Shown here: positions 6,447-56,934 of the stretch, piece by piece
Layout: each line of letters opens with the position of its first letter
Numbering within the stretch: position 1 is the stretch's first letter
Sequence record: NZ_CP011600.1
Direction: 5' to 3' (one strand)
DNA from: a plasmid
DNA length: 64,000 bases
The notes under the pieces: generated by a model
What the model was told of the DNA's origin: nothing
Database searches by the model: none
Seen by the model: only the letters and a program-made list of their open reading frames with translations
Position numbers and translations under genes: made by a program

Positions 6447-7313
6447 TCAGGAGGTGAGCGTGGCCAGCCGCGTGTAGTTATGGCCCCGGGACATCAGCAT
6501 GCGTTCTTTGACGCGTCTTGCCTGCTCCCGGCGAACGGCGTCCAGGTTACCGGTAAAACGTCCCTCAGCAATCTCACGCGTCAGCTGGCGTTTCACGATA
6601 GTCTCAATATCCCGGCGGGTACGGTCTGCATCCCGGCGGGCACGGGCACGCTTAAGGCCATGCTCCTTACGCTGAGACTGATAGCTGCGGAACCGCTCAC
6701 GTACGTAACGCCAGGCTCTGGCGATCAGCTCGTCCATTTCCAGTCGCGGCAGCTGCTGCTTTTCACGTTGCTGATTTTCCCACTCCACGCGGCTGCGGCG
6801 CGCGGCCGCCACTGCCACGTCTGAAACGTCTAGCGCAGAGAAGAATGCCGGCGTGAAAGTGATATCGGTCGGGATGTTACAGCCAATCTCCGGATCATAT
6901 TCGGTCTGGTAGGTAATCAGTCCCAGCTCCGCTATAAATTTCAGTGCCCGCGTGGCGCGGGTGATGGACAGATTGCCACTTTTCGATTCTGTGGCCAGGC
7001 CGCACTCAATGGCCAGATTGGTGATGGAGCGCTGGACGCGGTTGGCCAGAGGATCATAGTGAAAGGACAACCCCTGCAACAGCGCATCGATGGCGCGCCT
7101 GCGCAGTAACGGTGGCATACGGTGACGCATACCCAGCGAACGGGCAAAAGCAACGTGCATGGTAAAATCAAAACGCGATGTGAAGCCTTCGGCTTTCGCC
7201 ATCAGCTTACGGCAGAACGGCAGGGTCTTTTTGCCCTCTCTCGGCGTGAAAACCGGATTCGGGTTTTTTACCTGCCGGTAAAATGAGGTGTTTTCAGGTT
7301 TCTGCTCAGTCAT
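6447..7313 (-). CDS. repA1: IncFII replication initiator RepA1
   Basis: 288 aa with long near-identical stretches to R100/F RepA1 ([16 protein letters not shown]..., [46 protein letters not shown]). Start at 7313. Confidence 0.9.
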
Positions 7314-7611
7314 TCCTTCCTGCGCTTATGTTGCACAGAAGGAGCTCGCTCAGAAGGTCTTGCAGTTTTCCGGGCATAAAACTATACTCCCCGCATAGAG
7401 CAACAGCTTCTATGCAGTTTCTAAGGACCCCGTTAATCTTCTTATCCGCCAAGATTTGGAAAGATTATCGGGGTTTTGTCTTTTCTGGTTCCGGGTAGAC
7501 ACCTCATCAGAACCAGATCCCTGCCACCTTATGGCGTGGCCAGCCAGAATTCATAAACGATCTGCAATCTATCACTTCAACGGGCATACGACAAGAAAGT
7601 AATACCATTAC
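7314..7611. ncRNA. copA: copA/inc antisense RNA and repA leader (tap/repA6) control region of the IncFII replicon
   Basis: Sits between repA2/copB and repA1 exactly as in IncFII replicons, where the ~90-nt CopA antisense RNA is transcribed opposite to the repA1 leader. Exact ends not determined from sequence. Confidence 0.4.
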
Positions 7612-20245: not shown

Positions 20246-22836
20246 CGTTCATATCCTCCGGGATCAAGGTGTTCCTGCATTTCCTGATACGCCTCGTAGT
20301 CGTCACGATGACGGAGAATGTTCTTTTCCTCGTCCGCCATGCTTCTGTTCGCGTCGCTGTAGCGCCCTGCGTCGTCTTCCTCAGTGCGTTCAGGTTCGGC
20401 CTTGTGGTATCCGGCGCTTCGCACCGTCAGCGTTCCTGCGTCATCTTTTTCCATCTGCATATGCAGCTCGGGGGCTTCACCCTGTGCCGCACTGTCAGCA
20501 GCGTCAGCATCACTGTCTGTAACCGGCTTGCCGGCGCGTCTGGCCAGCATGTCCAGCGCACTGAATCCCGTCTTAACGGACGCCGGGGCGACCGGAGGCA
20601 CAACCGGCTCAGGAGGCGCTGGTACTTTTTCCGGCTCGGGCGCTTTTTGCGGCTCAGAAGGTGGTTGTGCGGTCCTGATACTGGCGGCAGGCGCTGGCCG
20701 GGCGACAGGTTGCGGGAATGGCCATACGTTTGAAGGCGGTGGTTCGCTGGCACTGACCGGCTCTGATACGGGGCGCACAGGCGGGGCTTCTGGCCCGTGA
20801 GTGTCGGTTGTCTGCTCCTGCGTCAGCGGGATAACGGAAGCAGGACGTGGCGGCGCTTTTTCGGGTACCGGCTTCGGTGTTGACGCCTTACCCGGTTTTT
20901 GTACCGGCGGCTTTACGGGTGTTTCAGTGGCCGGAATAGCGGAGGGAACCTGCGGTAACTCAGCACGGGTTGTTTCCGTTCCTTCCAGTATTTCTTCACC
21001 CGTCGGGAAACGAATCCCCGCAGCGGCAGCGCTGCGTTCATTGCCGGCAATAATGCTCTCCAGGACAGGACTCAGGCGGTCATGGAAATCGCGTTCGATA
21101 AGTGCGGGGTGATATTTCTTCTGCCTGCGATATTTGAGACTGAGTTTCACGACCGGATACTCACCCGGGAGGCGAATGTAAAACCGCAGGTTCGGCATTT
21201 TCATGACCTGGTCATAGTCCACAACCGGCTCGTTGACCTTATCCTTACTGATGGAGATACCGTCACGAACCTGGTCAAGACCGTAACTGTTCTGTTCACG
21301 GGCTTCACGCCGGCGCTGATGGCCAAGCTCCTCCTCCACCATCTTCGCGACCTCAGCACTCGGTGAACGTCCATACGCGCGGGTGTTAAGCAGGTCGAAA
21401 ATGGCTTTGGCCATCTCGCGGCCATAAATGTGGATTAACTGGGGGATGTTCTGCACGCCCAGCACAAAACAGCCGCCAAACTTACGGGCCTCAGCCAGTG
21501 TCTCATTCAGTTCAGGGATTTTTTGCAGGCTGGCTATCTCATCGCCGATGAACCACACACGGCGTTCACTGTCCTCACCCATGCTCTGGAGCAATAACGT
21601 AGCCAGAGAAAGCCACATGGAAATCAGCGGACGTACGGCCTTGCGATGACGGGCCGTCGTGGAAATAAACAGCCAGCTGTCGTTGTACTGTTCACTGGTC
21701 ATCCATTCACGGATGCTGAACTCAGGTTTGCCCTCTTTATCCAGCCCCTGCAGATACCGCAGTGATTTGGCATAGTTGGTTAACACGGAACGGATAGAGA
21801 TGGCGGTCTTTTCTATCTTTTCCTCAACCAGGTTGGCTGACGGCGTATTCCTGAGAAATTCACGCAAGCTCTTGAGGTCGATAGACAGCAGGGTTTTCAG
21901 GAACTTCTCGATGCTACGATCCGGGTCGTTCGCGAACTGCATTGCGCCATCACTGAAGATGGTCCGGGAGGAGGACACCCAGAACGGGTCGGAATCCCCT
22001 TCCACCGGCATCAGGGCCGCCGTCATGTTTTCGTAATCAACCACGTCCCGGCATTCCCGCCACAACACCCAGTTTTCACAGCGTTTGTCGTGCGCACAGA
22101 GGATTTTGTCACGCCGCTCATCGTAGTGTGTCTCGATGAAGGTGCCACCGGAGTCATAGATAATCGCGCGGTCGCCACGCCGGCGAATGTAGTCCAGCAG
22201 CCAGCGAATCAGGGTGGACTTACCTACGCCAATCGTGCCGTGAATAAGAAAGTTCATCACCTCTGCATCTTTGACCATGTAGAGGCCGCCTATCTGCAGA
22301 TCCGACTTTTCACCGGCTTTTTTGAGTAACCGGTTAACCTCCCGGGGCTTGTCGGTCAGCGTCATGCCCGAGATGAACTCATCCTCACTCTCTTTTTTGC
22401 CAATACGGCCCACGTACCAGGCGATAAGGCACCAGAGCAGAAAGGCCACCAGGCCGCAGGCTGAGGCAATGAATCGCAGATTTGCCATAAACTGGCTGCC
22501 CATTTCCTGCATCCACGGGTCAGCCAGTAGCTGTGCCGGCGTCATCTTCGTGGTACACAGCCGGCTGCCATCACCGCAGTGCCAGGTAATATCCCATGTC
22601 GCGGTGGTACTGCCCGGCGACAGCCCCAGTAACGAATGGGTGGGCCAGGCTGACCAGTACCAGAAGCCATTACGCAGGACATCGTCTGTCGTGGTAAGCC
22701 AGAACAGCACGCAGGTCGACACAATGAACAGCATCAGCATCCAGTGGAAAATCCAGTTGCTGACCTGGCCGAACATCCGCAGGCGATAGGCCGTCATCTG
22801 GCCGCCCTGCGTCAGGTATTTAGGGGTAAAGCTCAT
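20242..22836 (-). CDS. traD: Type IV coupling protein TraD with extended Pro-rich C-terminal region
   Basis: 864 aa. Two N-terminal TM segments, Walker A GTIGVGKST, FtsK/VirD4-like core. Overlaps the traI start by 4 nt. C-terminal ~200 aa is low-complexity and P/E/V-rich. Confidence 0.9.
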   Translation of the reverse strand: MSFTPKYLTQGGQMTAYRLRMFGQVSNWIFHWMLMLFIVSTCVLFWLTTTDDVLRNGFWYWSAWPTHSLLGLSPGSTTATWDITWHCGDGSRLCTTKMTPAQLLADPWMQEMGSQFMANLRFIASACGLVAFLLWCLIAWYVGRIGKKESEDEFISGMTLTDKPREVNRLLKKAGEKSDLQIGGLYMVKDAEVMNFLIHGTIGVGKSTLIRWLLDYIRRRGDRAIIYDSGGTFIETHYDERRDKILCAHDKRCENWVLWRECRDVVDYENMTAALMPVEGDSDPFWVSSSRTIFSDGAMQFANDPDRSIEKFLKTLLSIDLKSLREFLRNTPSANLVEEKIEKTAISIRSVLTNYAKSLRYLQGLDKEGKPEFSIREWMTSEQYNDSWLFISTTARHRKAVRPLISMWLSLATLLLQSMGEDSERRVWFIGDEIASLQKIPELNETLAEARKFGGCFVLGVQNIPQLIHIYGREMAKAIFDLLNTRAYGRSPSAEVAKMVEEELGHQRRREAREQNSYGLDQVRDGISISKDKVNEPVVDYDQVMKMPNLRFYIRLPGEYPVVKLSLKYRRQKKYHPALIERDFHDRLSPVLESIIAGNERSAAAAGIRFPTGEEILEGTETTRAELPQVPSAIPATETPVKPPVQKPGKASTPKPVPEKAPPRPASVIPLTQEQTTDTHGPEAPPVRPVSEPVSASEPPPSNVWPFPQPVARPAPAASIRTAQPPSEPQKAPEPEKVPAPPEPVVPPVAPASVKTGFSALDMLARRAGKPVTDSDADAADSAAQGEAPELHMQMEKDDAGTLTVRSAGYHKAEPERTEEDDAGRYSDANRSMADEEKNILRHRDDYEAYQEMQEHLDPGGYER

Positions 22837-23014
22837 ACGACACTCCGGATAATGCGCAGGGGTAATCCGCCCGTGTGAAACGGGCCGACAGTCTGTACAA
22901 GGGAATTAAGTATGTGGGCCGGGACCGGCCCGAAGGGGCTGATTATAAGGCGCGATGTGACGTCTTAATCTCGCTTCATCTTTCAGATTCCGCGCCCCGT
23001 TCCGTTCATTACCT

Positions 23015-23347
23015 TCAGACCGGACGGCGCAACAGATGAAAGATACGTTTAGCCGTGCGTTGTGCGTCATTCAGAATGCCGACCGTCAGAAAGGTCAGCA
23101 TGGAGGCCAGGGCACTGACAGCGATGAAAAACAGAATAAACACCATCAGGTTCGTCAGCCCCGTCCAGTTCCACGCGCCAGCCCCGGCATCCTGCAGGAC
23201 GGTCGAGTAGCTGAACAGGACTGAATTCTTGGCCAGCCATTTGATCACTGGCGCACCAAACTGTTCGGTCAGGAATGCCATCCAGGCGGACAGGACGAAA
23301 ATGAAAAACATGACTTTTATTGATGTACTCATAAATGTTTTTTGCAT
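23015..23347 (-). CDS. Small integral membrane protein (3 predicted TM segments), unknown function
   Basis: 110 aa with hydrophobic segments (VMFFIFVLSAWMAFL, LMVFILFFIAVSALASMLTFLTV). Located between the adhesin gene and traD. Confidence 0.4.
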   Translation of the reverse strand: MQKTFMSTSIKVMFFIFVLSAWMAFLTEQFGAPVIKWLAKNSVLFSYSTVLQDAGAGAWNWTGLTNLMVFILFFIAVSALASMLTFLTVGILNDAQRTAKRIFHLLRRPV

Positions 23348-23446
23348 GGGAATGTTCCTTAAAAATCAACAAAGCGTGTTCTGTTGCTTTTGGTGAAGCG
23401 AGGACTGAAAAAGGGATGAGTGCTGACAGGGAACGCGAATGAATAC

Positions 23447-26401
23447 CTACCAGCCGACAGCGAGGCCACCGGCCACGCCTACCGCCTGGCTGGAATCCCA
23501 TGTCAGGCTGACGCGCGCATTAACCCTCGGGCTTAACTGCCGCTGAATGCCACCGGCAATGGCCGTTTCACCCCGGTATGATCCGATGGCCATCCCGAAA
23601 CTGTTGTCGACGTCTTTAGTCAGATAGGGAATATTTGTCAGTGCCATCACGCCGGCGATACCGGCATTGGCGCGACGTTCATTACGGTTAACCCGGTCAT
23701 TGAGTTTGCTGAAGCGCTGGTTGGTATAGTTGCCGGCGCTGGCAAGCGTGTTCGCATCACCTGCAATGCGGGCGTCATGCTCACTGGCTACCAGGCTGTC
23801 TGTCCGGGAGTTGATGGCTGTTTCCCGCTGGTCTGTATACGCTTTTGCGCTGCCCAGCGTCTGCCGGTCCCCCTCGATACGGGCCAGTTGTTCTGTATCC
23901 ATCATTTTGTCTGTTCGTTTGTTTATCGCCGTTTCACGGGTGTCGGTGTAACTCCGGGCACCGCTGAGCGTCCGGGCATCACCACTTTCCCGGGCCTGCT
24001 GCTCGCTGGCTATCAGGCCGTCGGTCCGCTGGTTAATGACCGTTTCCCGCGTATCGGTATAGCTTTTCGCACTGTTCAGCGTGGCGGCATCCCCGTTCTG
24101 GCGCGCCTGCTGCTCGGCGGCCATCAGGCCATCCGTCCGCTGGTTGATGGCCGTTTCCCGGGTGTCGGTATAGCTTTTTGCACTGCCCAGCGTTGCTGCG
24201 TCACCTGCGTCACGGGCCTGCCGCTCGGTGGCCATCAGGCCGTCCGTCCGCTGGTTGATGGCCGTTTCCCGGGTGTCGGTATAGCTTTTTGCACTGCCCA
24301 GCGTTGCTGCGTCACCTGCGTCACGGGCCTGCTGCTCGGCGGCCATCATGCCGTCTGTCCGCTGGTTGATGGCCGTTTCCCGGTTGTCTGTGTAACTTTT
24401 TGCACTGTTCAGGGTGGCGGCGTCTCCGTTCTGGCGCGCCAGTTGCTCTGTGGCCATCAGAGTGTCAGTGCGCTGGTTGATCGCAGACTCACGGGTGTCG
24501 GTGTAGGTATTGGCTGCCGAGAGTGTTTCCGCATCACCGGCAATACGCTGCGATTTTTCGTCCGCAACCAGTCCATCAGTCCGGGCATTGATCGCCTGTT
24601 CCCGGGCGTCGGTATAGCTGTTTGCGGTACTGATTGCGACGGCAGTCTGCTGGTCATTGTAATTACCTGATTTTGCGAGGTTGTCAGCATCGCCGGTTAT
24701 CCGATCACTTTTCTCCTGGGCCAGCAGAGTATCAACGCGGCTGTTAATGACCTGTTCGCGTGCATCGGTATATCCCTTTGCACTGTTCAGCGTGGCAGCA
24801 TCGCCGGCCTGGCGTGCCTGTAACTCGGTAGTGAGGAGACTGTCAGTCCGGGTGTTGATCGCTTCCTCACGAATATCGGTGTAGCCCGTCGCGCTGTTCA
24901 GCGTGCTCACGCTGCTGCTCTGACGTGCCTGTTGCTCTGTGGCCAGCAGAGTATCAGTCCTCTGGTTGATAGCCGTTTCACGTGTGTCGGTGTAGCTCGT
25001 CGCGCTGTTCAGCGTGGCCGTATTTCCGCTCTGGCGCGCCTGCTGTTCGGTGGCCATCAGGCTGTCAGTCCGCTGGTTTATCGCAGCCTCGCGGGTATCA
25101 GTGTAGCTGTTCGCACTGTTCAGCGTGGCCGTATTTCCGTTCTGGCGTGCCTGTTGCTCGGTGGCCATCAGGCTGTCCGTCCGCTGGTTAATCGCAGCTT
25201 CGCGGGTGTCGGTGTAGCTGTTCGCACTGTTCAGCGTGGCCGTATTTCCGCTCTGGCGTGCCTGCTGTTCAGTGGCCATCAGGCCGTCAGTCCGGGTATT
25301 GATGGCGGTTTCACGGGTGTCGGTGTAGCTGTTCGCTGTGCTCAGTGCAACGGTGGCCGCATCGTGCAGCTGCTTCACATTCACGGCATCGGTGTCTGCC
25401 GTTCCGGTAGCGACATTCGTTAACTGGCGCTCATTGCCGGTGCTGCCAAATGACACGCTGCCTGCCCGGCTTCCAACAGAGTTATACCCAATTGCAACCG
25501 CGCCATTGCTGGCGTTTGCGTTCTGCCCGATAGCAATAGAATTGGCATCTTTTACTGTGGTTGTCGTACCAATACCAATGGCATCATCGGCATAGCTCAT
25601 CTGGCTGCCAAAGCCGATAAGAATACCGCCACTGTCATGTTCGCCGCCGGTGATGGTGTTGTTATTGCCGAGGATAGCGGAGTTGCTGCCGGCACTGACC
25701 GTATTGCTGTTTCCGGTAATACTGGTGCCGTCAGCGCTGGAGCTGAAACTGGTCGCTGAAAGGTCTTTAACCGTATTATTCGAGCCAAAAATATTGCTGC
25801 TTGTTGCCTCAACAACCGTATTGCCGTTACCGATGGCATTGATACCGTCAGACTGAACACTGCTGCTGTAGCCGAATATGTTATTGTAATTACCCGAAGA
25901 GGTAATATAGGACCCGGTCAGGTTGGTTGAAATGCCGGTGGTTCTGAGTTCATTGCCCAGCGTAATATTATTTGTCCCGGTCGCATTAATCGTAAAACCA
26001 AACGCGCCATTCCCCGATCCATCAATCGTTATCCCTGAACCAAACGCATTTATGTTCCCGTTTTTTGTATTATTATTGTTGCCAAAAACATTCGCATATG
26101 TATTAGCCAGTTGGTTATTCTGCCCCATCACATTCACGTCGCCACTGTTTACGACGTTGGCCGAACCCATAATTTCTGAGCAACTGAGATTATTGACGGT
26201 GTTGTAACTGCCGTAAATATCTGAGACGGAGTCAGGAGAAGTACAGCCATAACTGGCCCAGGGGCCTGAAAAAGTCGAGACGTTTCCGTCACCGAAAAAT
26301 GTCAGTCGCGTCTGTGACGGATCTTTAGTATTGGCCGCATGAGCAGAAAAGCAGATCACACCGACAACAATCAGTGCTATTTTGCTGAACGTAGTTTTCA
26401 T
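23447..26401 (-). CDS. Trimeric autotransporter adhesin (YadA-like: signal peptide, beta-roll head repeats, neck, long repetitive coiled-coil stalk, C-terminal YadA membrane anchor)
   Basis: 984 aa. Signal peptide MKTTFSKIALIVVGVICFSAHA. Head with NS.AIG-type repeats. Neck ERQLTNVATGTADTDAVNVKQLHD. ~20 tandem 26-aa stalk repeats (ANSYTDTREAAINQRTDSLMATEQQARQ.G..ATLNS). C-terminal anchor ...AIGSYRGETAIAGGIQRQLSPRVNARVSLTWDSSQAVGVAGGLAVGW ending in W. Confidence 0.85.
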   Translation of the reverse strand: MKTTFSKIALIVVGVICFSAHAANTKDPSQTRLTFFGDGNVSTFSGPWASYGCTSPDSVSDIYGSYNTVNNLSCSEIMGSANVVNSGDVNVMGQNNQLANTYANVFGNNNNTKNGNINAFGSGITIDGSGNGAFGFTINATGTNNITLGNELRTTGISTNLTGSYITSSGNYNNIFGYSSSVQSDGINAIGNGNTVVEATSSNIFGSNNTVKDLSATSFSSSADGTSITGNSNTVSAGSNSAILGNNNTITGGEHDSGGILIGFGSQMSYADDAIGIGTTTTVKDANSIAIGQNANASNGAVAIGYNSVGSRAGSVSFGSTGNERQLTNVATGTADTDAVNVKQLHDAATVALSTANSYTDTRETAINTRTDGLMATEQQARQSGNTATLNSANSYTDTREAAINQRTDSLMATEQQARQNGNTATLNSANSYTDTREAAINQRTDSLMATEQQARQSGNTATLNSATSYTDTRETAINQRTDTLLATEQQARQSSSVSTLNSATGYTDIREEAINTRTDSLLTTELQARQAGDAATLNSAKGYTDAREQVINSRVDTLLAQEKSDRITGDADNLAKSGNYNDQQTAVAISTANSYTDAREQAINARTDGLVADEKSQRIAGDAETLSAANTYTDTRESAINQRTDTLMATEQLARQNGDAATLNSAKSYTDNRETAINQRTDGMMAAEQQARDAGDAATLGSAKSYTDTRETAINQRTDGLMATERQARDAGDAATLGSAKSYTDTRETAINQRTDGLMAAEQQARQNGDAATLNSAKSYTDTRETVINQRTDGLIASEQQARESGDARTLSGARSYTDTRETAINKRTDKMMDTEQLARIEGDRQTLGSAKAYTDQRETAINSRTDSLVASEHDARIAGDANTLASAGNYTNQRFSKLNDRVNRNERRANAGIAGVMALTNIPYLTKDVDNSFGMAIGSYRGETAIAGGIQRQLSPRVNARVSLTWDSSQAVGVAGGLAVGW
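23760..25370. repeat. Tandem 78-bp coding repeats (~20 copies) within the adhesin stalk
   Basis: Visible nucleotide periodicity (e.g. ccgtccgctggttgatggccgtttcccgggtgtcggtatagctttttgcactgcccagcgttgctgcgtcacc recurring). This explains the cluster of overlapping artefactual plus-strand ORFs. Confidence 0.8.
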
Positions 26402-26704
26402 TGGGTATTCCTGAAATGCTGAACGGGGTTATCTGAGAGGGCTACAGGCGGGGCGTGCTGGAACACGCTCCGCCATCCCCATAATCTGGCCGGGTGGAAG
26501 AGTTTGTGGGTCAGGCGTAATTCAGGGTTGGGTTTTCATCCACAGGCGCTCGCCGCAACCATGACAGGGCAACGCGCTGTCATGGGAGGAAGCGAAATAT
26601 CCCCGAAATAACATCATGCACTTACGCTACCAGCCCGGAGACGAGCACGGTGGACGTTCAGAATGACGAAAGAAGGTTTGTGGCGGACACCACAACCCGG
26701 GATG

Positions 26705-27436
26705 TCAAAGGATGCCGGCGATAGATTTGGCCAGTTGCGCTTCAAGTACCGGTTTCGCTTCTTCGAATTTGAGATTCACCTTGTTCGCGTTCGATACCAC
26801 GCGGGTCTGGTATTTCGTGCGGTTGCCCTGCTCCGTGCTGGTCTGCACTTTAACCCCTGAAGTACCCTGTTTGAGCGCAGCCACATTACTGGTCGTCACA
26901 GGCGCTTTACTGCGTTCTGATATCTGCAGATCGGTCACCATTGTGTAATTCACGTCCTCAACCATTGCATCTGCGGCCATACCGACCAGACCCGTAGCCA
27001 GCCCGACGCCGAGCGTGGTACCCGCAGACCCGGTGTTATAGGCGGCAATACCCGCCCCCAGTGCCGCTGCGGTTGCACCCCCTTCATAGCCGCTGCTGAG
27101 AAATCCCTGGGACTGGCGCAGATCCATTTTTTCAGCTTTGAGCACACTGGCCTGTACCCAGAAATAAGCAGTATCAGATGAGGGCGTAACACGGTAGCCT
27201 TTCGCTGTCAGTTCTGACGCTATCTGCGACTGTAATCCCGACATATCCTTATCAGACGTATTCCGCACCTGAATAAAGACTGTCTTTTCAGACGTTGGCT
27301 CCAGCCAGATGGTTTCGCTCATCTGAGTTTTGACATCAAGGTCACGCTTTTTGATTGCAGTGCTCATGGCACCACAACCGGATAGCAAAAAGCAGGCAGC
27401 AGTCATCGCTGCCACGAGAGCATGGCGGTGTTTCAT
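26705..27436 (-). CDS. traT: Surface exclusion / serum resistance lipoprotein TraT
   Basis: 243 aa, near-identical in long stretches to F TraT ([29 protein letters not shown]...[29 protein letters not shown]). Lipobox LLSGC. Confidence 0.9.
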
Positions 27437-27565
27437 GGATGTATCCTTTTTGATGATAAAAACGGAACCAGCGCACCTGGGGAGGCACGCTTTTTCAATA
27501 GGTATTATTCGGGGAGAACCCTTCCTTCAGGAGTGCGGAAGGGCGCTGTAACAAAGAAAGATGGA

Positions 27566-28141
27566 TTAAATCTTTTTGAGCAGATTACTGACTTTCTCGA
27601 GCGCTACTCCCGCACCGAGGCGGTTAATTTCCATTCCTACAACAATATTGACGATAAAAAATAAAGCAGCCTCAGAAGCTGGAACACCAAAAGCAAGCCA
27701 GGGAATGAAAGCACACAATAGTGTTGAAAGAAGCATCACTCCTAAAAAGAAAACTACAACTTTCTTAACAACCTTCTTCAAGTGCCTCAAAACTAATGAT
27801 TTCTCCCGAACTTCATTAGAGATAGTAAGATACAATATAAGGTTGTTGTAAGTCATGAAGGAAAAAAGCAGTCCAATAATTACAGTCGGTGCAATTACTA
27901 CCCACCCTTCCGATGTTAAAAAATTAAAAAAGCCATCAGAATATAAATTCTTATACCGGTGCGAATCCACAAGGTAAAAAACTAATGTGCTTACTAAACT
28001 GAGAATGAGTGACACTACTGGTATAAAGAAACACCTTCTAAGCAAGTCTGAATTAGAAGGAATAATTCTATTTCCTGACGAAATATTGTCAGCAAGCATA
28101 GCTATATCTGCATCAATTTCGGTTTTTGTGAAATTACCCAT
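27566..28141 (-). CDS. traS: Entry exclusion inner-membrane protein TraS-like
   Basis: 191-aa multi-TM, low-GC, poorly conserved ORF in the traS position between traG and traT. Confidence 0.5.
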   Translation of the reverse strand: MGNFTKTEIDADIAMLADNISSGNRIIPSNSDLLRRCFFIPVVSLILSLVSTLVFYLVDSHRYKNLYSDGFFNFLTSEGWVVIAPTVIIGLLFSFMTYNNLILYLTISNEVREKSLVLRHLKKVVKKVVVFFLGVMLLSTLLCAFIPWLAFGVPASEAALFFIVNIVVGMEINRLGAGVALEKVSNLLKKI

Positions 28142-28164: not shown

Positions 28165-31100
28165 CTATGAGGCTTTATTCTGTTGAGCTCTTAGTGTTTC
28201 TAGTTTTTCTTGAAAACCGCCCCTTTTTTCTGAGCTATCCCAAATTGGCAACGTTTGCTTCAAATCTTCTTCGGTTCGACCAATCTGCTGGCGTTTCACC
28301 GCCCCCTGATGCTCTCCCTTGAGTATATCACTGGACGTCTGAACAGTGTTTTTATTTTCGTCAATTTTTCCGCCATTTTCCCTGACAGTTTCCGTATTGC
28401 CAGATCTTTGTGCTCTTACACTACTGGCCACATCATTACGGATACCGGCACCGGAAGCCTGCTCGCTTATCCGCTGCGTACCCTGACGAAAATCAGTGTT
28501 CATCATTTCCGAAGGGCCACTGGCAGGCGTACTCAGGTTACGCTCATGAATACCGACGTGTACATTTTCCTGCTCACGGCGGACCGGTGTGGTGGAAACC
28601 GTTCTGCCAGCAGGCTCATTACCCGGCTGAGACCGGTGCAGTGAACCTGCGCCAGGTCTTTCGGACTCCCCGCCCGGCATTCCCTGCTGCGTCTTCTGTC
28701 CCCCGGATGTGCGAACCGTACCCTGTACGTCATAACTGGCGTCATAGCGAGACGGCGTGCTACCTGCCGGTACAACCGGAGAAGAACCCGCAGGCTCACT
28801 CTGACCTGCAACTCGCTGACGTCCGCCGCTGATTGTGCCCCCTGTTTCACCGGATGGCGCATTCCGGACCATTGACGTTTGTGGGTCCGGTGTATTGCGA
28901 CCTGTCACAGTCCCCTCCTGGCTGGACTGCACCGGGTTTTCCAGTGTGCGCGACGGTTGTAATGGCTCACTGTTAACCTGCTCCGTTCGGGCGCCGTAGT
29001 TCCGCATGATTTCCGGCTCAAGCCGCTCGTGCATGAATTCCGTCGCTGCTGTCTGCGCACTTTTCACATTGGTCAGGATGTTCTGCGCATCGCTGCCGTA
29101 CTTCGCCGTTGTCCAGTTCACAAACTCCTGATTGTAGTTGGCATCCAGGCTTGCACTCTGCGATTGTGACAGCGTGGCCATGCGGCTGAATTCCTGGCTG
29201 CGTGTGCTGCTTTCGGTGTACTGATGGTACTGGCTTTTCGCATCGTTCAGCGTGGCTGCGAACTGCTGTGCCTGCGAGCTGGACTGGTTGTCCGTATGGC
29301 TTCCCGACTGACTCAGGCGGGTCGAAGTGACCATATCCATCCCTTCACGGAAGTCACGTGCTTCCTGGCTGTTCTGGTCATGCCGGTTATCCCGGCTTTC
29401 AGAATTGGTGTCCTGTGTGCCGTGCGCACTGCCGGAAGTATGTTGCCAGCCGGTATTAACGCTGGCCTCCCCGCCTACGCTGAGACCGGTCGCCCATTTA
29501 CCAAGTTTGCCGGCGAGCTGATCGCCGGAATCAAATTTGATGTACGCTTTGCCATCAGCCCCCATGCTGCCCCGGTTAGTGATATCCATGAGCTGGTTAT
29601 ACGCCTGCTGTTCGGAGATATTGTGGGATTTGGCATAACTTTCCACCGCCGACTGCATTTTGCTCGCGCCGCGACTGACATTTGTCGCCACACTGCTGTC
29701 GCTACCCTGCGTCATCGTGTCGCTGTTGCCGCTCTGACGGGTCAGCTGGTTCATCTGCTGGAAGCCACTGGTAACGCTGTGGTTGTAGCCATCAAGTGAA
29801 CTCTGTGCTTCCTGTTGCGCCTGGCGCGCCTGTTCGGAGTACCCACTGCTGGCCAGTGCGCTGAGCCGCATATTCACCGGCAGGTTAGAGATGGCTCCGG
29901 AGGTGTCATAGACCTGACTTCCGTCAGCCGTCTGTGTATGCATTGAGCCGTTGGTGGTCTGGAATGCCTGCGAGCCTGAGCGGTGCATCATGTTGGTGTC
30001 AAACTTGTTGGCATTCACATTATCCATCGACATGTTGTTAAACGACCAGTTGCCGTCCGCCGTGGTGGAGGCCTGCCCGCCAGTTGCAAACGCCGCCGAA
30101 CTCATAATGCTCCCCACAGCCTGCGAAGCCACCGAGGCTGCCCCCTTCGTCAGGAAGAAGGCCAGAATCGGTATCGACATGCTGAGATAACCAGCAATGT
30201 TGGCCGCATCCGAGTGCTGCAGTGCCACCTGGTCCTGGTTCGCCAGTACCAGTGCCGTGTTACCGGTTTTCGTCTGCAGATAGAAGTTAGCCAGTGAGTT
30301 GAGGATGGCAAACATCACCGGCCACATCTGAAAGTACAGAAAACCTCCGGCATAGAGTTTAAGCGTGTTCAGCCCGAAAATACTGTGGTTAACCAGTGCG
30401 AGCGCAATGACCAGCGGGAACAGTCCAATCAGGACCAGCATCATCAGCGACTGGAACATTGGCAGCGTGCGTGCGGCTATCACACCACCCGCACCCCAGC
30501 TGATGCGCTGTTTGGTCAGGCTGGACTCCGTGGCCAGGTTGAGCAGGTTCGCGGTGTCCGAAGACCGGGCCGCGAAGCCCTTCCAGCCGTCGCGGATCGC
30601 AGCATTGGTGATGTTGTTGCGCATAATCTGCGAGGCACTCAGTCCACCGGCGTAGAAAAAGTTATAACTTTCGTTCATTGAACTACTCAGTAGCGCGTTT
30701 GCATTGATCCGGTTGCCGAACAGCCGTGTCGCTAACGCATGCCAGGTGGTGCCCCCAAAACTGATATCCGCGCCGATCAGATTCTTAATGACACCGGCGG
30801 CCTGCTGGCAGGTAACGAACTGGCGCCCGCCACCGGTATCCTGATACACACCTCTTAACGGACTCGGGTTGTCAGTAATCAGCGTCAGCGGGTCGGTACT
30901 GTTCAGCAGCTGTGCCACGGTGTATTTGCTGTTGAGCAGAATGTCACCCACCACACAGTTTTCCACGTAGTCGGTGAGCATCTGAGCAAGCTGTGGGTTT
31001 TGTGTCCGGAAATCGGACGACTGCGCCACAATCTGAGAGCCAAAGAGCATGCCTGATTTTGTGTATGTCAGCGAATCGGGCCGTGCGAGCGCATAATCAT

Positions 31101-31449
31101 AAAGCCGGGCGACAGAGAACCCGACAGAAGTCGATAAACCGGCAATGCCTGCCAACCCGGCCGGCACATTATCCACCTCATAGACCGCTGCCGGGTCAGT
31201 GATATCAATAATCTGCACGCTACGCTTGGGTACCAGCAGTACCGAGGTGATGATGAAAAAGATGGCGACCCAATGTAGAAATACCATCGGATTGCGTGAT
31301 TTGATGAAGCTCGCCATCACGCCCAGCACTCCGAAAAGCCCCACAATGCGTTTCAGTGTGCTGTAGGTATCTGAGCCAATAATGGTGACCACGCCATTAA
31401 ACGTCTGCCGCCACATATCTCCGCCGTAAATGGTCCAGACCTCAGTCAT
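28165..31449 (-). CDS. traG: TraG (N-terminal pilus assembly / C-terminal mating-pair stabilisation and exclusion domain) with long Q/S/T/G-rich C-terminal extension
   Basis: Start placed at MTEVWTIYGGDMWRQTFNGV (matches F TraG MNEVYVIAGGEWLRNNLNA). Multi-TM N-domain. ~1094 aa vs 938 in F, with the excess in a polar, disordered-looking C-terminal region. Confidence 0.85.
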   Translation of the reverse strand: MTEVWTIYGGDMWRQTFNGVVTIIGSDTYSTLKRIVGLFGVLGVMASFIKSRNPMVFLHWVAIFFIITSVLLVPKRSVQIIDITDPAAVYEVDNVPAGLAGIAGLSTSVGFSVARLYDYALARPDSLTYTKSGMLFGSQIVAQSSDFRTQNPQLAQMLTDYVENCVVGDILLNSKYTVAQLLNSTDPLTLITDNPSPLRGVYQDTGGGRQFVTCQQAAGVIKNLIGADISFGGTTWHALATRLFGNRINANALLSSSMNESYNFFYAGGLSASQIMRNNITNAAIRDGWKGFAARSSDTANLLNLATESSLTKQRISWGAGGVIAARTLPMFQSLMMLVLIGLFPLVIALALVNHSIFGLNTLKLYAGGFLYFQMWPVMFAILNSLANFYLQTKTGNTALVLANQDQVALQHSDAANIAGYLSMSIPILAFFLTKGAASVASQAVGSIMSSAAFATGGQASTTADGNWSFNNMSMDNVNANKFDTNMMHRSGSQAFQTTNGSMHTQTADGSQVYDTSGAISNLPVNMRLSALASSGYSEQARQAQQEAQSSLDGYNHSVTSGFQQMNQLTRQSGNSDTMTQGSDSSVATNVSRGASKMQSAVESYAKSHNISEQQAYNQLMDITNRGSMGADGKAYIKFDSGDQLAGKLGKWATGLSVGGEASVNTGWQHTSGSAHGTQDTNSESRDNRHDQNSQEARDFREGMDMVTSTRLSQSGSHTDNQSSSQAQQFAATLNDAKSQYHQYTESSTRSQEFSRMATLSQSQSASLDANYNQEFVNWTTAKYGSDAQNILTNVKSAQTAATEFMHERLEPEIMRNYGARTEQVNSEPLQPSRTLENPVQSSQEGTVTGRNTPDPQTSMVRNAPSGETGGTISGGRQRVAGQSEPAGSSPVVPAGSTPSRYDASYDVQGTVRTSGGQKTQQGMPGGESERPGAGSLHRSQPGNEPAGRTVSTTPVRREQENVHVGIHERNLSTPASGPSEMMNTDFRQGTQRISEQASGAGIRNDVASSVRAQRSGNTETVRENGGKIDENKNTVQTSSDILKGEHQGAVKRQQIGRTEEDLKQTLPIWDSSEKRGGFQEKLETLRAQQNKAS

Positions 31450-32812
31450 TGCCGGTACCCCACTGGTAGTTGCTCTGATAGGACGTTGAGATAATTGTCG
31501 AGACCTGCTGTTGCAGGTACTGCATGTTCCGGTCGATACCGTCGAGGGCATTCTGGTCGGCAGTCGACTGCAGTTTCATCTGCGCCAGCAGTGAGGTCAC
31601 CGCCAGTACGTTATTACGCAGATCACTGGCGGCCTGTTCCGGGAAGTTTTTACCTGCCAGCGACTGACTTGCCTGTTTTACCAGCTCCTGCAGGTACTGG
31701 ATCATCATGTCCTGGGCCACAAAGTCTGCGACCTGTAACAGATAGGTTGGACTCATACCCATACTGCGGGAGTTGGTCAGGTATTTCAGCACCGGCACAG
31801 ACGTGGTATTGATGAAGCCCTTTTCCTTATCCGACAGACCGGTATCGCTACTGAGTTTGCTGTCGATGGAGACCATCAGATTACGCACCTGCGAAACCAG
31901 CGCGACGTCGCTGCTGATGGTTACATCCTTTACGGTGGGTCCCAGACACAGGCTGGACTCATCACATCCATATATCTTTGCCGTACCTCCACGCATTAAT
32001 ACACCGACAATGTCACGGTTATCGACCAGCGGAGTGAGGATGGTGACCTGTCCCTGCGCGTTGAAAATGATGGAGCCCACCACACTCATCACAAGCTCTT
32101 TAAGCTGCTGATTACCATCGAACAAATGATTGCGCCCCAGTGCGTCCCAGATGAGGTTTTTATTCTTGAGCACCTGGTCTTTTTGGGCATCGGACGCCTT
32201 GCTCGTCACGTTGTCGCCCTGCCCTCCGACCGTGCACCCCTGACGCGATGCCGCCCAGTCAGCGAACATGTTGCTTTCGCCGGCGATGTCCTGGCAGATT
32301 TTCTGGTTCGACACCTGTGAGACGGGCCACAGCCCGCCGATGATGCCTTGTGCCGCCTGACAGGAGCTCATGTTCATGGAATTAATATCACTGGCCAGTT
32401 TCTGCAGAAAGTCTTTCGCCTGCTTGAGTTCCGGGACCATTGTCTGCAGGGCCAGATCAAAAGCATATCCGGCTGCGTTGGACATTATTTGCTTTGCAAA
32501 GCGCTGGATTTCCTCTCCACTTATCATGGAGAACGCCCCGAGGTAGGCGTCAATACCGCCACAACCGGCATTGAGTGATGGTACCTGCATGGAAATAAGC
32601 TGTACCTGTTTGACGGGATTTCGCAGGTACACTGAGCCACCGGTGAAATACCCGGCTGCCTGCCCCTGCCACGCCTGGGCTTTTGAAACATTCCCGTCAA
32701 AACCGAGGCTGCCAAAATAGCCGTTAAGGTCGCCCTGTACATCGGCGAACGCCGGTGTACTGAGACCCAGCACCGTCACAGCAGAAAGAAGTAACTGACG
32801 GAGTTTAATCAT
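31442..32812 (-). CDS. traH: Pilus assembly protein TraH
   Basis: Start at MIKLRQLLLSA. Strongly matches F TraH (NAGCGGIDAYLG.FS.I.GE..QRF.KQIMSNAAGYAFDLALQT..PELKQAKDFLQK.ASD.NSMNMSSCQAAQGIIGGL). Confidence 0.9.
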   Translation of the reverse strand: MIKLRQLLLSAVTVLGLSTPAFADVQGDLNGYFGSLGFDGNVSKAQAWQGQAAGYFTGGSVYLRNPVKQVQLISMQVPSLNAGCGGIDAYLGAFSMISGEEIQRFAKQIMSNAAGYAFDLALQTMVPELKQAKDFLQKLASDINSMNMSSCQAAQGIIGGLWPVSQVSNQKICQDIAGESNMFADWAASRQGCTVGGQGDNVTSKASDAQKDQVLKNKNLIWDALGRNHLFDGNQQLKELVMSVVGSIIFNAQGQVTILTPLVDNRDIVGVLMRGGTAKIYGCDESSLCLGPTVKDVTISSDVALVSQVRNLMVSIDSKLSSDTGLSDKEKGFINTTSVPVLKYLTNSRSMGMSPTYLLQVADFVAQDMMIQYLQELVKQASQSLAGKNFPEQAASDLRNNVLAVTSLLAQMKLQSTADQNALDGIDRNMQYLQQQVSTIISTSYQSNYQWGTGND

Positions 32813-45207: not shown

Positions 45208-45723
45208 TCATGCTGCAGCCTCTCTCGCGACAATATGAAAGCGCATGCTGCTGTTTACCGGGACGCGCACCTGCTGATTCATCAGGTTCAGGAGGAGCAT
45301 GGCCCGCTTCATGCCGTCCGGTTCATACCACACGGCTTCGATACCTTCGAATGCACCATCACGGAGCATCACCCGGTCCCCGTGCTGTGGGGCGACTGTC
45401 TCCGGTGGCGCACTGCTCCAGCCCTGGCTGAGTTGTGTAATCACGCTGTCCGGTACCACGGAAGGCAGGCCACCGAAGCTGATGAGCGTCGAGATACCAC
45501 GCGTGGCTTTGATGGCCGTGGTGTGCACCACCTCCGGGTCAAAACGCACAAATATGTAGTTCGGGAACATCGGCTGCGGCGTTACCCCCCTGACCCTGCC
45601 ATTGTGCAGGCGGACCTCGGAGAGCATCGGCAGCAGGCACGTCACCCCCTGACTCTGCAGCTGTTGTTGCGCCCGCTTTTCCTGGGCGAACTTCGTCTGT
45701 GCCACATACCAGTTTTCCATCAC
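45208..45723 (-). CDS. RfaH-like NusG paralog (ActX-type plasmid transcription antiterminator)
   Basis: 171 aa. Aligns along its full length with E. coli RfaH (MENWYVAQTKF.QE.RAQQ.L..QGV.CLLPM...V......R..V..P.FPNY.FV.FDPEV.HTT.I.ATRG.S....FGG.P..VP..VI.QLS.......GD.V...GAFEG..A...EPDG..R.MLLLNL.N). Confidence 0.8.
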   Translation of the reverse strand: MMENWYVAQTKFAQEKRAQQQLQSQGVTCLLPMLSEVRLHNGRVRGVTPQPMFPNYIFVRFDPEVVHTTAIKATRGISTLISFGGLPSVVPDSVITQLSQGWSSAPPETVAPQHGDRVMLRDGAFEGIEAVWYEPDGMKRAMLLLNLMNQQVRVPVNSSMRFHIVAREAAA

Positions 45724-51124: not shown

Positions 51125-51510
51125 GTGTGTGTCAATCCGGCACTGAGTAATATTTTTTTCAGGTGTGTGAATCCGGCACTGTTCACACCAAAAAGGTGTG
51201 TTAATTCAGCACTATGTATCAAAAACGTGTGTGTCAATCCGGCACTATACTGCGTTTTCGTGTGTGTTAATCCGGCACTGTGCCCTGTTTTTATGTGTGT
51301 TAATCCGGCACCATTCAGTATTTTAATGTGTGTCAATCCGGCACTGCACGCTGAAAATTTATCTATAATTCACTGATTTTAAATAATAGCCACAATAAAC
51401 ACACACCACAGTGCCGTTTACAGTGCCTGATTGACACACAATTAGGCACTGCATTGACACACAATCCGGCACTGCATTAACACACAATTAGGCACTGAAA
51501 CATGTGTTAA
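51125..51510. repeat. Array of ~12 copies of a 19-bp motif TGTGTGT(C/T)AATCCGGCACTG: 7 direct copies with ~33-bp periodicity (51125-51346) then 4-5 inverted/degenerate copies (51400-51510)
   Basis: Direct copies begin at 51125, 51162, 51195, 51227, 51259, 51293 and 51326. Inverted copies include cagtgcctgattgacacaca (51421-51440). Located between the traM promoter and oriT. Confidence 0.75.
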
Positions 51511-51559
51511 TTAACACACACTTTGATTTGAACAGGCTAAAAACAGGCAAAATATCAAT

Positions 51560-51625
51560 GTAAGCAACTGTTTTAAAAAACAAAAACTGCAAGATGAAAT
51601 CTTGCGTGGGGTGTGATGAAACTAA
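51560..51625 (+). promoter_or_regulatory. oriT: F-like oriT core with nic site ~51613/51614 (GCGTGGGGTGT|G) and adjacent inverted repeat gcaagat-gaa-atcttgc
   Basis: Sequence aactgcaagatgaaatcttgcgtggggtgtgatg matches the F/R100 nic region (TTTGCGTGGGGTGT|GGTG) including the conserved IR. Plus strand is the nicked/transferred strand, leading region to the right. Confidence 0.6.
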
Positions 51626-51791
51626 AAGAAGAAAAAGCGGCTTGTGAAATAGATCGAAGTTGTTGGATTTATTATATCTCTGTCTCCTTTCAGGGATGTG
51701 CAGCAAGCGCCCCGTGCGCGTCTGTAACGAATTATCTTGCAACGGATGATCTGAACGCGTATTTTTCACAAAAAACCGTCAGGCACATTTT

Positions 51792-52361
51792 GTGCGCGCA
51801 TATGAGATTATCAGAATGAAATGGTTAGCTATCGCTGGCTTTGCTGCCGTATTCAGCGCACAGGCCGCGCCGGAATTATGTTTCGATGAAGCTGGTCGTG
51901 ACTATGGTATTGATCCCACGCTTCTGATGGCAATATCAATACAGGAGAGCCGGTTAAATCCGACAGCCATTAACAGCGCCAGTGCGGGCGGTACAGAAGA
52001 CGTCTGTGCGATGCAGCTCAACAGTAATAATTTCGGCAAGCTGAAAAACTTCAATATCACGCGTAAGGATCTGCTTAATAATCCCTGCATCTGCGTGTAC
52101 AGCGGCGCATGGATTTTAGCCAGAAACTTCCAGGCCTACGGCAGGAACTGGGACAGTGTGGGAATGTATAATACAGGACCGAATCCAAAACTGATAAAAG
52201 CAAGGCGTGAATATGCGAGGATCATAAAAAGCATCTACACGGTACTGCTCGCCAGAAAACAGTTACTTGAGAAAGGCACAGGCGATCCCGTTAAAACGTC
52301 GCCATTCAGTGAAAATGCTGACCAGAGAACACCGGTGAAAGACGAAAAAAAGCCCGGTTAA
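51792..52361 (+). CDS. Lytic transglycosylase (F orf169 / R1 gene 19 / geneX family, SLT domain)
   Basis: 189 aa with signal peptide. Motifs (CFDEAGRDYGIDPTLLMAISIQESR, GAWILARNF, GMYNTGP) match F Orf169 ([25 protein letters not shown]). Confidence 0.85.
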   Translation: MRAYEIIRMKWLAIAGFAAVFSAQAAPELCFDEAGRDYGIDPTLLMAISIQESRLNPTAINSASAGGTEDVCAMQLNSNNFGKLKNFNITRKDLLNNPCICVYSGAWILARNFQAYGRNWDSVGMYNTGPNPKLIKARREYARIIKSIYTVLLARKQLLEKGTGDPVKTSPFSENADQRTPVKDEKKPG

Positions 52362-52377
52362 CCGGGCTTTTTATTTT

Positions 52378-53199
52378 CTAGCTCTTGAGCTTCGCAAACT
52401 CTTCGGCCATTTTCCACAATGCCTGATTAAGCTTTATGTCTCCGTCAATCCCTGTTACCGGGCGTGTGGTTGTATTTTTTCCTTTGGCCGTTCTGCCACG
52501 TAAACCACCCTTGATCAGGTTTTCCTGCACAGTGTTGTAGGTTGTCCAGAGGTCGGTTTGTTTATCTTCATAACGGCGCGGAACAAGAATTTTCTCTGCC
52601 GTGACGGGCGCTTCTTTGCCATCGTATTTAATATCGAGTGCGGTATTAGCGAGAAGGATTCTTTCGTCAGGAGAAACCGTGATCCCTTTCATCATCTCAA
52701 TATTTTCAGTGACATTATCAAATATCCCGAGCACCTCATATGCCCCTTCGATAACCTGCCCGACAATATCCCCTTTGTGAGGCACATTGATTTCCCCGAA
52801 TGACTTCCAGCAAACCAGACCATTCGTGCAGACCTGCCGATACATACCGGGGATCATTTTATAACTGCTGGACCCGTCGTGTGAGTTCAGTAAAAGAATC
52901 TCCGGCACTTCTTTACCCGAAAAATTATCGCCGCGACGTAAACGCAACATATGTTTCGTGAATTCCCGGCGGTCCGGATTACGTACACGTGACTGGCTGG
53001 CGTAATACGGCTGGAATCCCTCTTCACGCAGGCGATCCAGTAATGCGATGGTCGGAATATAGGTATATCTGTCAGAGCGTGATTCGTGTTTTTCCACTGA
53101 AAACGCGCTGGGAACAACACGCATCAGTTCATCATTCGTGAGAGGACGATTCTGGCGAATTGATGTCGGCGCAGCATAACGTGATGATAAACGGATCAT
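52378..53199 (-). CDS. DUF932-family leading-region protein (F orf273-like)
   Basis: 274 aa from the ATG at 53199 with a perfect AAGGAG SD. N-terminus MIRLSSRYAAP...RPLTNDELMRVVPSAF...HESRSDRYTYIPTIALLD.LREEGFQPY.ASQSRVRNP is typical of DUF932 proteins found next to oriT. Confidence 0.6.
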   Translation of the reverse strand: MIRLSSRYAAPTSIRQNRPLTNDELMRVVPSAFSVEKHESRSDRYTYIPTIALLDRLREEGFQPYYASQSRVRNPDRREFTKHMLRLRRGDNFSGKEVPEILLLNSHDGSSSYKMIPGMYRQVCTNGLVCWKSFGEINVPHKGDIVGQVIEGAYEVLGIFDNVTENIEMMKGITVSPDERILLANTALDIKYDGKEAPVTAEKILVPRRYEDKQTDLWTTYNTVQENLIKGGLRGRTAKGKNTTTRPVTGIDGDIKLNQALWKMAEEFAKLKS

Positions 53200-53209
53200 G
53201 GTTATCTCC

Positions 53210-54045: not shown

Positions 54046-54149
54046 CAGTGATCGGGAAAAGACGAATAACCAGGACAGGAATATGCGCCGGCACAGCAGC
54101 AAACATGTCAGGAATACGGGAGAGGGTAAGACACTATGTACCAGGCGTA

Positions 54150-54220: not shown

Positions 54221-54242
54221 CGTGGCCGTTCCGGGCAGATGA

Positions 54243-55354: not shown

Positions 55355-55415
55355 TCTTATCTCCTTAGTGATGGTGGCCGGTTACCCGGCCGGGTCGTTG
55401 CGGTTAACGTTCCGG

Positions 55416-56863: not shown

Positions 56864-56934
56864 GATGTTCTCCTTCCTGCGAATTCAGATGATGTGTCAC
56901 CCCGGCAAGGCCTGCCGGGGTGTGGCGCCGTGAT

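Follow-up and report, generated by a model that had tools for sequence, protein, structure and literature searches.

The 64,000-nt stretch of plasmid DNA considered here (sequence record NZ_CP011600.1; the whole stretch is termed the window, and all coordinates are window positions) carries a gene for a trimeric autotransporter adhesin (TAA) of 984 amino acids within an F-like transfer (tra) operon, between traT and traD. The superfamily of the protein is a known one, to which existing annotation already assigns it. The main new result is that the transfer-operon setting is recurrent: counting the nearest and many of the distant relatives, at least 10 different plasmid backbones carry a TAA gene inside or at the edge of a transfer operon and co-directional with it. 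Full-text literature searches found no publication on the window gene or on TAAs inside transfer operons, and neither a Phytobacter plasmidome preprint nor an IncX functional screen mentions the adhesin. On the basis of this co-directional embedding, and of a signal peptide, neck, stalk core and anchor held in common, a transfer-operon-associated TAA family is proposed. The window protein can be placed with high confidence as a stalk-expanded member of this plasmid-borne family. The chances that it serves as a transfer-coupled cell–cell adhesin are judged, from the sequence, to be about even.

Relatives Encoded in Other Transfer Operons

The nearest relatives are proteins of Pantoea agglomerans (P0005), of a metagenome (P0003) and of Klebsiella (P0004), together with the TAA of Erwinia amylovora plasmid pEU30 (WP_168393705.1). 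The last is 57% identical to the Pantoea protein, a figure that places it by way of that protein and not by direct alignment with the window protein. The other three have the same signal peptide as the window protein (MKTT[LF]SKIALI...HAANT), an identical neck and the same 15-residue stutter in the stalk core. Their identity to it is 41–47% over the head, 66–77% over the stalk core (aa 534–652) and 55–64% over the anchor. The short relatives have 518–548 aa and about four stalk repeats and belong to MPF_T (VirB-like) operons, whereas the window protein has 984 aa, 14 repeats and an extra head insertion, and belongs to an MPF_F operon. They are plasmid-borne, lie in transfer regions and are annotated as “YadA-like family protein”.

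The gene orders around these and more distant TAAs cover several transfer systems. The TAA gene is co-directional with its neighbours in IncA/C-like MPF_F plasmids (traV-TAA-dsbC-traC), in about 50 records of IncU-like Pseudomonas aeruginosa plasmids (DUF6012-T4CP-TAA-trbM, where T4CP is the type IV coupling protein) and in IncI1-like Escherichia coli plasmids (nusG-DUF2913-TAA-...-traH-traI-traJ). Like the window, whose tra operon encodes an RfaH/NusG paralogue, the IncI1-like plasmid carries a nusG-like gene, here a short way upstream of the TAA. The Pantoea gene (P0005) is found in the order virB11-three small open reading frames (ORFs)-TAA-PLD-...-T4CP, and that of pEU30 in the order T4CP-kikA-TAA-ssb. 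Further arrangements are T4CP-157 aa-TAA-topB-hns on an IncX-like contig, T4CP-trbM-TAA-DUF6012-topo on the IncX4-typed pZ869-2, T4CP-cag12-trbM-TAA on a 34.5-kb E. coli MPF_T plasmid and TAA-virB1-virB2-virB3-virB4 on Proteus p52; two more cases lie beside korAB/kla genes or a nikA-relaxase gene. Many of the transfer-operon TAAs directly adjoin trbM/kikA. The mainstream IncX4 backbone was rejected as a carrier, as the IncX-like TAA type occurs in only about 49 PLSDB records.

The same association was seen in metagenomes. A scan seeded on a generic neck motif gave 80 TAA loci, the flanks of which were scored by phmmer against 62 transfer proteins taken from annotated loci. Of the 18 relatives whose match spans most of the protein, 11, all ten best matches among them, had at least two different transfer proteins in their flanks; among the 62 generic TAAs matched by the neck alone there was none (Fisher p = 3e-9).

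Architecture of the Adhesin

The adhesin gene is a 2,955-nt reading frame on the minus strand (23447..26401), which the initial annotation had described as encoding a signal peptide, a beta-roll head, a neck, a repetitive stalk and a C-terminal anchor. The signal peptide (aa 1–22, 26336–26401), MKTTFSKIALIVVGVICFSAHA, precedes ANT, with cleavage before A; it was recognised by inspection as a plain Sec signal peptide, and is common to the relatives. It is followed by the head (aa 23–324, 25430–26335), the neck (aa 325–348, 25358–25429), the stalk (aa 349–895, 23717–25357) and the membrane anchor (aa 896–984, 23450–23716), all on the minus strand. In Pfam, YadA_stalk (PF05662; 37.9 bits against a cutoff of 28.4) and YadA_anchor (PF03895; 28.1 bits against 22.7) pass, and the YadA head repeat (PF05658) remains below its cutoff of 25 at 17.6 bits. 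The curated NCBIfam YadA model NF033478 scores 49.7 bits against a cutoff of 750, and the BimA model is also far below its own.

Comparison with solved structures by phmmer gave matches in two parts of the chain. Residues 228–348 align to the head and neck structures of SadA (2YO0, E 6e-15), YadA (1P9H, E 1.6e-9) and BpaC, with the canonical neck RQLTNVATGTADTDAVNVKQ beginning at aa 325. Residues 887–984 align to the anchors of Hia (3EMO, 2GR7) and AtaA, and the protein ends in ...GGLAVGW. An AlphaFold2 monomer model of aa 1–360 (pLDDT 67) consists of beta structure throughout, its short strands spaced by ~7 residues, up to a helix that starts at residue 335; a Foldseek comparison of the head model with the PDB returned only non-significant beta-solenoid matches. 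The signal peptide, neck and anchor of the initial annotation are therefore upheld; its beta-roll head is plausible over aa 228–348 and tentative over the N-terminal ~200 residues, which have no assignment. Taken together, the protein is predicted with high confidence to be an intact Sec-exported type Vc TAA with a beta-rich head, a canonical neck, a long coiled-coil stalk and a 4-strand anchor. No Pfam or NCBIfam match to the TraN, Pep/TrbM/KikA, PilV or RSP families was obtained for the adhesin.

With TAAs of the YadA, SadA, UpaG and EhaG type, the protein shares a neck, a coiled-coil stalk and a 4-strand anchor, preceded by putative YadA-like head repeats. YadA of Yersinia pYV differs in its stalk repeat and in belonging to a virulence regulon instead of a tra operon. 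Among characterised proteins, the one most closely related in stalk and anchor is Saa, an autoagglutinating adhesin of LEE-negative (lacking the enterocyte effacement locus) Shiga toxin-producing E. coli, which is carried on pO113-type plasmids (Paton et al. 2001, as cited in PMC3714128). Saa is likewise a plasmid-encoded TAA with a 37-residue stalk periodicity and is 42% identical over the last ~230 residues. It differs in its length (497 aa), in a head that cannot be aligned with that of the window protein, and in its setting, a virulence-cargo island beside espP, iha and subAB instead of a transfer operon. An orthologous relationship with Saa was ruled out, as only the C-terminal ~230 residues align; the shared periodicity is a resemblance. 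No model at the level of orthologues gave a match.

Stalk Repeats

The initial annotation had counted about 20 tandem repeats of 26 aa (78 bp) in the stalk. Tandem Repeats Finder instead gives a period of 111 bp (37 aa), and a listing of the protein in this register gives 14 full 37-aa units in blocks of six and eight, split by a 15-residue partial unit. Block 1 (aa 351–572; 24686..25351, minus strand) has six units, the first five of which are an expansion without counterpart in the short family members. The partial unit (aa 573–587) lies ahead of block 2 and is conserved across the TAA family. Block 2 (aa 588–883; 23753..24640, minus strand) has eight units, of which about six are an expansion relative to the short relatives. 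The degenerate last stalk unit runs on into the anchor. In the family alignment, the window-specific repeat expansions cover aa 349–533 and aa 653–877, and a head insertion of ~40 residues covers aa ~131–174. If each residue of the coiled coil adds ~0.15 nm, a stalk of ~550 residues would reach about 80 nm, against ~25 nm in the short relatives.

The repeats had also been expected to make the stalk prone to recombinational variation in length, and little was found to favour this. The units have diverged to 51–92% identity at the DNA level, and the longest exact run common to any of them is 65 bp, in units 10 and 11 only. Copy number is constant across the related plasmids compared, with the same number of units in all full-length copies, including L018. 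Apparent repeat-number polymorphism was traced to N-filled scaffold gaps at units 10/11, which account for a “1013-aa” protein (L119) and a fragmented gene (L116). The repeat expansions are real on an evolutionary timescale, and the sequences of the copies compared carry no sign of ongoing variation.

An Accessory Segment Between traT and traD

Plasmid pENT-812c (CP026189.1) provides an empty site. It is 94–96% identical to the window in both flanks (traD and traT) and has only 398 bp between the two genes. Base-level comparison with pENT-812c delimits the extra DNA of the window to ~23028..26487 (~3.46 kb), so that the adhesin segment is, by sequence comparison, a genuine insertion/deletion difference and hence accessory. 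Neither pENT-812c, at 95% identity, nor other group-D plasmids carry the adhesin, which rules out a core F-type transfer gene; the adhesin is an accessory gene and not a core tra gene. The initial annotation is upheld in that a complete YadA-like TAA forms an extra segment between traT and traD.

The edges of the extra DNA are marked by an imperfect 10-bp direct repeat, with an upstream copy at 26488..26497 (GGCCGGGTGG, plus strand) and a downstream copy at 23018..23027 (GACCGGACGG, plus strand). The two copies match at 7 of 10 bases, and the empty site of pENT-812c has a single copy, GGACGGGCGG. A clean target-site duplication was not found at the cassette edges, these imperfect repeats being all that was present, and no transposase or integrase is encoded among the cassette ORFs. 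The difference may have arisen either by gain of the cassette or by deletion between short repeats, both being compatible with the sequences. A chromosomal source was sought without success, with no close relative of the head among 185,579 species-representative genomes. The G+C content of the head is 44–49%, against 55–60% in the backbone.

Over 22700–27500 the window is 100% identical to five Japanese Phytobacter plasmids, pMRY16-398_1 together with four from P. diazotrophicus. Their type is IncFIB/IncFIC, MOBF and MPF_F, and the gene is annotated on them as “YadA-like family protein”. The 3′ end of the adhesin gene, the 110-aa ORF that follows it (orf110), traD and traI are present at ~96% identity on contigs L006–L008. 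Contigs L009 and L018 carry the cassette at 95–96% identity next to a traD that is only 70–77% identical, and their identity breaks off at 23014, immediately downstream of the stop codon of orf110. The conserved block of L018 begins inside traT (27362) and covers the complete adhesin. By these limits, traT, the adhesin gene and orf110 have moved together, as a single block of ~95% identity, between two distinct F-like backbones. Identical copies of the orf110 protein occur in 63 collection blocks, with the order traG-traS-traT-TAA-orf110-traD wherever the contig is long enough. The cluster at ≥90% identity holds 28 variants from over 200 contigs, which are assigned to Phytobacter, Kluyvera, “Grimontella”, Enterobacter hormaechei and Klebsiella michiganensis.

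Far from being disrupted in all relatives, the adhesin reading frame is intact in every finished copy. The ratio of nonsynonymous to synonymous substitution rates (dN/dS) is 0.09–0.24 over the C-terminal third of the adhesin, for copies 4–5% apart at the DNA level, and 0.23–0.31 over orf110, where substitutions are few; the orf110 frame outscores two alternative frames. The adhesin is, judged by these substitutions, under purifying selection.

Gene Order and Expression Signals

All genes of the region are on the minus strand, with traT, the adhesin gene, orf110 and traD co-directional. The series begins with traG (31551..28165) and a 191-aa traS-like ORF (28141..27566; a marginal TraS match, 25 bits). 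These are followed by traT (26705..27436), which encodes the surface-exclusion and complement-resistance lipoprotein (Pfam TraT, 264 bits; NCBIfam PRK13731, 424 bits). A gap of 303 bp, between 26401 and 26705, separates traT from the adhesin gene, and one of 99 bp separates the adhesin gene from orf110 (23015..23347), which encodes a small membrane protein. The positions and orientation of the two reading frames are as the initial annotation gave them. A further 178 bp of backbone DNA leads to traD (20242..22836; TIGR02759 TraD_Ftype, 656 bits), the gene of the type IV coupling protein, after which comes traI (20245..15875). In its remaining parts the operon, which runs from traM to traI, is complete, and the TraN/TraG contact factors are all encoded. 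The host plasmid is, with high confidence, a group-D F-like Phytobacter plasmid (MOBF12/MPF_F, IncFIB/FIC), in terms of the published classification of F-like plasmids (PMC5102898).

The G+C content of the traS-like ORF is very low, at 35–39% against ~57% in its surroundings, and pENT-812c has two other ORFs at this position, which makes the exclusion region a replacement hot spot. PADLOC gave no defence-system match for the TAA, orf110 or the traS-like ORF.

It had been proposed that the gap upstream of the adhesin gene could hold a promoter of its own. The length of the gap stands, at 303 bp, and the promoter gained no support. Alignment with pENT-812c assigns 217 bp of it (26488..26704, minus strand) to the backbone, leaving a cassette-specific 5′ leader of ~86 bp (26402..26487, minus strand), and a consensus scan of the 303 bp found no consensus sigma-70 promoter. 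Three coding-strand sigma-70 matches are intragenic, in the AT-richer head of the adhesin. The best terminator-like candidate in the gap is a weak hairpin at 26678–26695 in backbone DNA; a terminator scan and RNA folding place a second hairpin, which lacks a U-tract, within 26488..26704. A G+C-rich hairpin at 26447–26474, with an 11-bp stem containing one mismatch, a 6-nt loop and no U-tract, lies at the cassette's 5′ edge, next to the boundary repeat on its inner side; it may serve RNA stability or recombination, or have no role. Shine–Dalgarno-like motifs are present before both genes, AGGAA 7–11 nt before the ATG of the adhesin gene and AAGGAA for orf110.

Since the genes share a strand and Shine–Dalgarno motifs, no consensus promoter is present and the hairpins lack U-tracts, read-through from the tra promoter is the simplest expectation, and co-transcription of the adhesin gene with the tra operon is plausible. 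A plasmid-encoded RfaH/NusG paralogue is located inside the operon between traB and traV (45208–45723, minus strand). The canonical RfaH ops site (GGCGGTAGNNTG, at most one mismatch) was sought and discarded, with chance-level matches only in the window and none in the tra leader.

orf110 and the traT–traD Slot

The product of orf110 has an N-terminal hydrophobic segment and a 33-residue hydrophobic block, giving two to three predicted transmembrane (TM) helices; the initial annotation of a small membrane protein with three TM segments agrees with this in kind, the count being two to three. A word-indexed search returned near-identical copies only, and a full HMMER search against 1.84 billion representatives returned seven remote relatives of 99–178 aa with 29–43% identity. 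All four of the relatives that could be placed (P0056, P0058, P0059 and P0060) are encoded between traT and traD, just upstream of traD, on F-like plasmids that have no adhesin there. A role of orf110 as an accessory or partner of the adhesin was accordingly rejected, as its homologues occur in the gap without a TAA. With orf110, they form a small, unannotated family of ~100–115 aa with two to three predicted TM helices, immediately upstream of traD in group-D plasmids.

Other genes occupy the same gap. On the Cronobacter and Enterobacter plasmids with P0059 it also holds another 110-aa ORF, ccdAB and a 102-aa ORF, and on pENTE01 and E. hormaechei plasmids it holds an unrelated soluble ORF of 104–116 aa. 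The statement that traT is directly followed by traD thus holds for F itself and fails in group-D plasmids, where the gap contains zero to five different small genes, including ccdAB, and is a variable slot. Within it, orf110 is a native occupant and the adhesin gene a rare large one. The last four orf110 codons overlap DNA that is common to the empty site of pENT-812c. In the most economical history, the adhesin gene was inserted between traT and a gene of the orf110 type, and the block was then exchanged as a whole.

Other Features of the Plasmid

A Tn3-family transposon of ~5 kb is inserted in traI (10921–15909, with the junction to traI at 15909/15910). It encodes a resolvase (10954–11559, minus strand) and a TnpA in two parts (11654–14077 and 15420–15878), interrupted by an IS110-family IS5075 transposase (14142–15146). 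The insertion shortens the relaxase ORF to 1,456 aa, compared with 1,906 aa in sibling plasmids in PLSDB, and the window copy of the plasmid may be transfer-defective. The siblings pMRY16-398_1 and pTMTA97341 have an intact relaxase. An independent truncation of traI is present in L117 (GCA_001856865.3, a 243-kb contig), where similarity ends at the equivalent of position 18476; the DNA beyond encodes a periplasmic binding protein and an ANTAR regulator, and the adhesin gene is still an intact 984-aa ORF.

A CopA-like antisense RNA (7395–7482, plus strand; Rfam RF00042, 71 bits) adjoins an IncFII-type repA (6447–7313, minus strand), beside which a tap leader peptide is annotated in a sibling plasmid. 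The leading, oriT-proximal region upstream of traM (51260–57993) is rearranged relative to pMRY16-398_1, with a number of short segments that recur and stretches in which identity falls to 85–97%.

A Proposed Role of the Adhesin in Transfer

Conjugation requires stable contact between cells, and TraN–outer membrane protein (OMP) pairing, PilV, Pep/TrbM and the IncHI RSP help to set the host range and the efficiency of transfer in liquid. Studies have described pKM101 Pep, RP4 TrbM and R388 KikA as plasmid-encoded conjugation adhesins (PMC13311141; Gonzalez-Rivera 2019, PMC6351158), and the TrbM/KikA family as an adhesin-like enhancer of conjugation (PMC13311141). The Ig-like RSP of IncHI plasmids is a large surface protein encoded in the Tra region and is required for mating in liquid (PMC6764697). 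These proteins and F TraN are surface or adhesin-like accessories that are encoded in transfer regions and raise mating efficiency; the TAA differs from them in having no sequence or fold relationship, in its type Vc autotransport and in its far greater reach (tens of nm). The recurrent embedding of TAA genes in transfer operons, their frequent adjacency to trbM/kikA and the precedent of the IncHI RSP favour a mating adhesin. Retention of the cassette is supported by its presence in two F-like backbones (traD 70–77% identical), always in the same place.

In such a role, the adhesin gene would be transcribed along with the rest of the long tra operon, in which an RfaH/NusG paralogue is also encoded; that the gene lacks a recognisable promoter and a strong terminator of its own suggests this. 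Transcription with the operon would result in display of the fibre only on transfer-competent donors and new transconjugants. The fibre, ~80–90 nm long, would project the head beyond lipopolysaccharide or capsule, and the head would attach to other cells, whether directly or, in the manner of Saa and YadA, through self-association. Such binding would form or stabilise mating aggregates and raise the transfer frequency, especially in liquid or under shear. The fibre would act upstream of the TraN/TraG contacts, and in addition to them.

Several considerations weigh against this role. F-like plasmids mate well in liquid by means of retractile pili and TraN–OMP contacts, so that the need for a further adhesin is not obvious. 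Proximity to type IV secretion system (T4SS) genes is partly expected by chance on small conjugative plasmids of 30–60 kb. The metagenome loci are not independent, several being the same plasmid type, and the set of reference transfer proteins came from related plasmids with an enterobacterial bias, which lowers the sensitivity for distant T4SSs among the controls. Counter-examples to the transfer-operon setting include yadA, which resides on a non-conjugative virulence plasmid, and Saa, the nearest characterised relative in stalk and anchor and a cargo adhesin in a virulence island. The relaxase is broken and the adhesin intact in two independent lineages, by the Tn3-family insertion in the window and by the deletion in L117. 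This is compatible with a benefit that is independent of transfer, and both events look very recent. Finally, long TAAs can sterically hinder a T4SS, as with BadA and VirB/D4 (Lu et al. 2013, as cited in PMC13311141).

The adhesin may instead serve the host bacterium, by making cells autoaggregate, form biofilm, adhere to plant or animal surfaces or resist complement, with the tra slot as a permissive and well-expressed site and no effect on transfer. This explanation is considered somewhat unlikely. The broken-relaxase lineages would suit it, as would the acceptance of unrelated small genes and a ccdAB module by the same slot, and the neighbouring traT is itself a complement-resistance factor by its Pfam name. 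The resemblance of the stalk and anchor to a virulence-island adhesin (42% identity to Saa, with the 37-residue periodicity) points in the same direction. The head is the most divergent part (41–47% identity against 66–77% in the stalk core), as expected of a ligand-binding domain that adapts to surfaces, and among the plasmids of Phytobacter, a genus associated with plants and humans, this type is the most common (bioRxiv 10.1101/2025.10.09.681365). What a host-serving adhesin leaves unexplained is the co-directional embedding in the transfer operons of at least 10 backbones, often by trbM/kikA, and not in cargo regions. A silent passenger, recently acquired, silenced by H-NS or untranslated and carried by linkage without a function, is very improbable. 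The lower G+C content of the head, the AT-rich promoter-like sites within the gene and the narrow distribution of the exact cassette would agree with it; against this stand a 2,955-nt repeat-containing frame that is intact in all finished copies, a dN/dS well below 1 across copies 4–5% apart in DNA, and the persistence of the cassette in two backbones and several genera.

It could also be envisaged that a dense layer of ~80-nm fibres keeps other donors, phages or complement away and so adds to the surface exclusion by TraT, without promoting mating. The gene follows directly after the traS-like ORF and traT in the exclusion region, traT, the adhesin gene and orf110 move together as a ~95%-identical block between two divergent backbones, and the stalk is three to four times longer here than in the relatives. 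The interference of BadA with VirB/D4 offers a precedent, again as cited in PMC13311141. Such a barrier is nevertheless improbable: the relatives in VirB-type plasmids adjoin the T4CP gene and the conjugation-enhancing trbM/kikA instead of exclusion genes, and a barrier on the donor side would hamper its own mating.

Implications

Should the TAA act as a transfer-coupled cell–cell adhesin in the window plasmid, the recurrence of the setting would allow a more general proposal, which is put forward tentatively and with something short of even confidence. TAAs would be widespread, unrecognised mating adhesins, recruited repeatedly into F-, VirB- and I-type operons, including those of clinical P. 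aeruginosa, E. coli O157 and Enterobacter plasmids. The length of their stalks would be tuned to the mating apparatus and the envelope, at ~25 nm in VirB-type systems and ~80 nm here.

If the adhesin is only cargo, the traT–traD gap of group-D F-like plasmids is still an insertion-tolerant slot inside a long operon. If TAAs do form a modular contact system, they would account in part for how efficiently several families of plasmids with resistance genes transfer and which recipients they reach, and the operon-embedded TAAs would be surface-exposed targets for blocking plasmid spread. Plasmid transfer in Gram-negative bacteria would then be linked to aggregation and biofilm formation, in a manner similar to that of aggregation substance in the enterococci.

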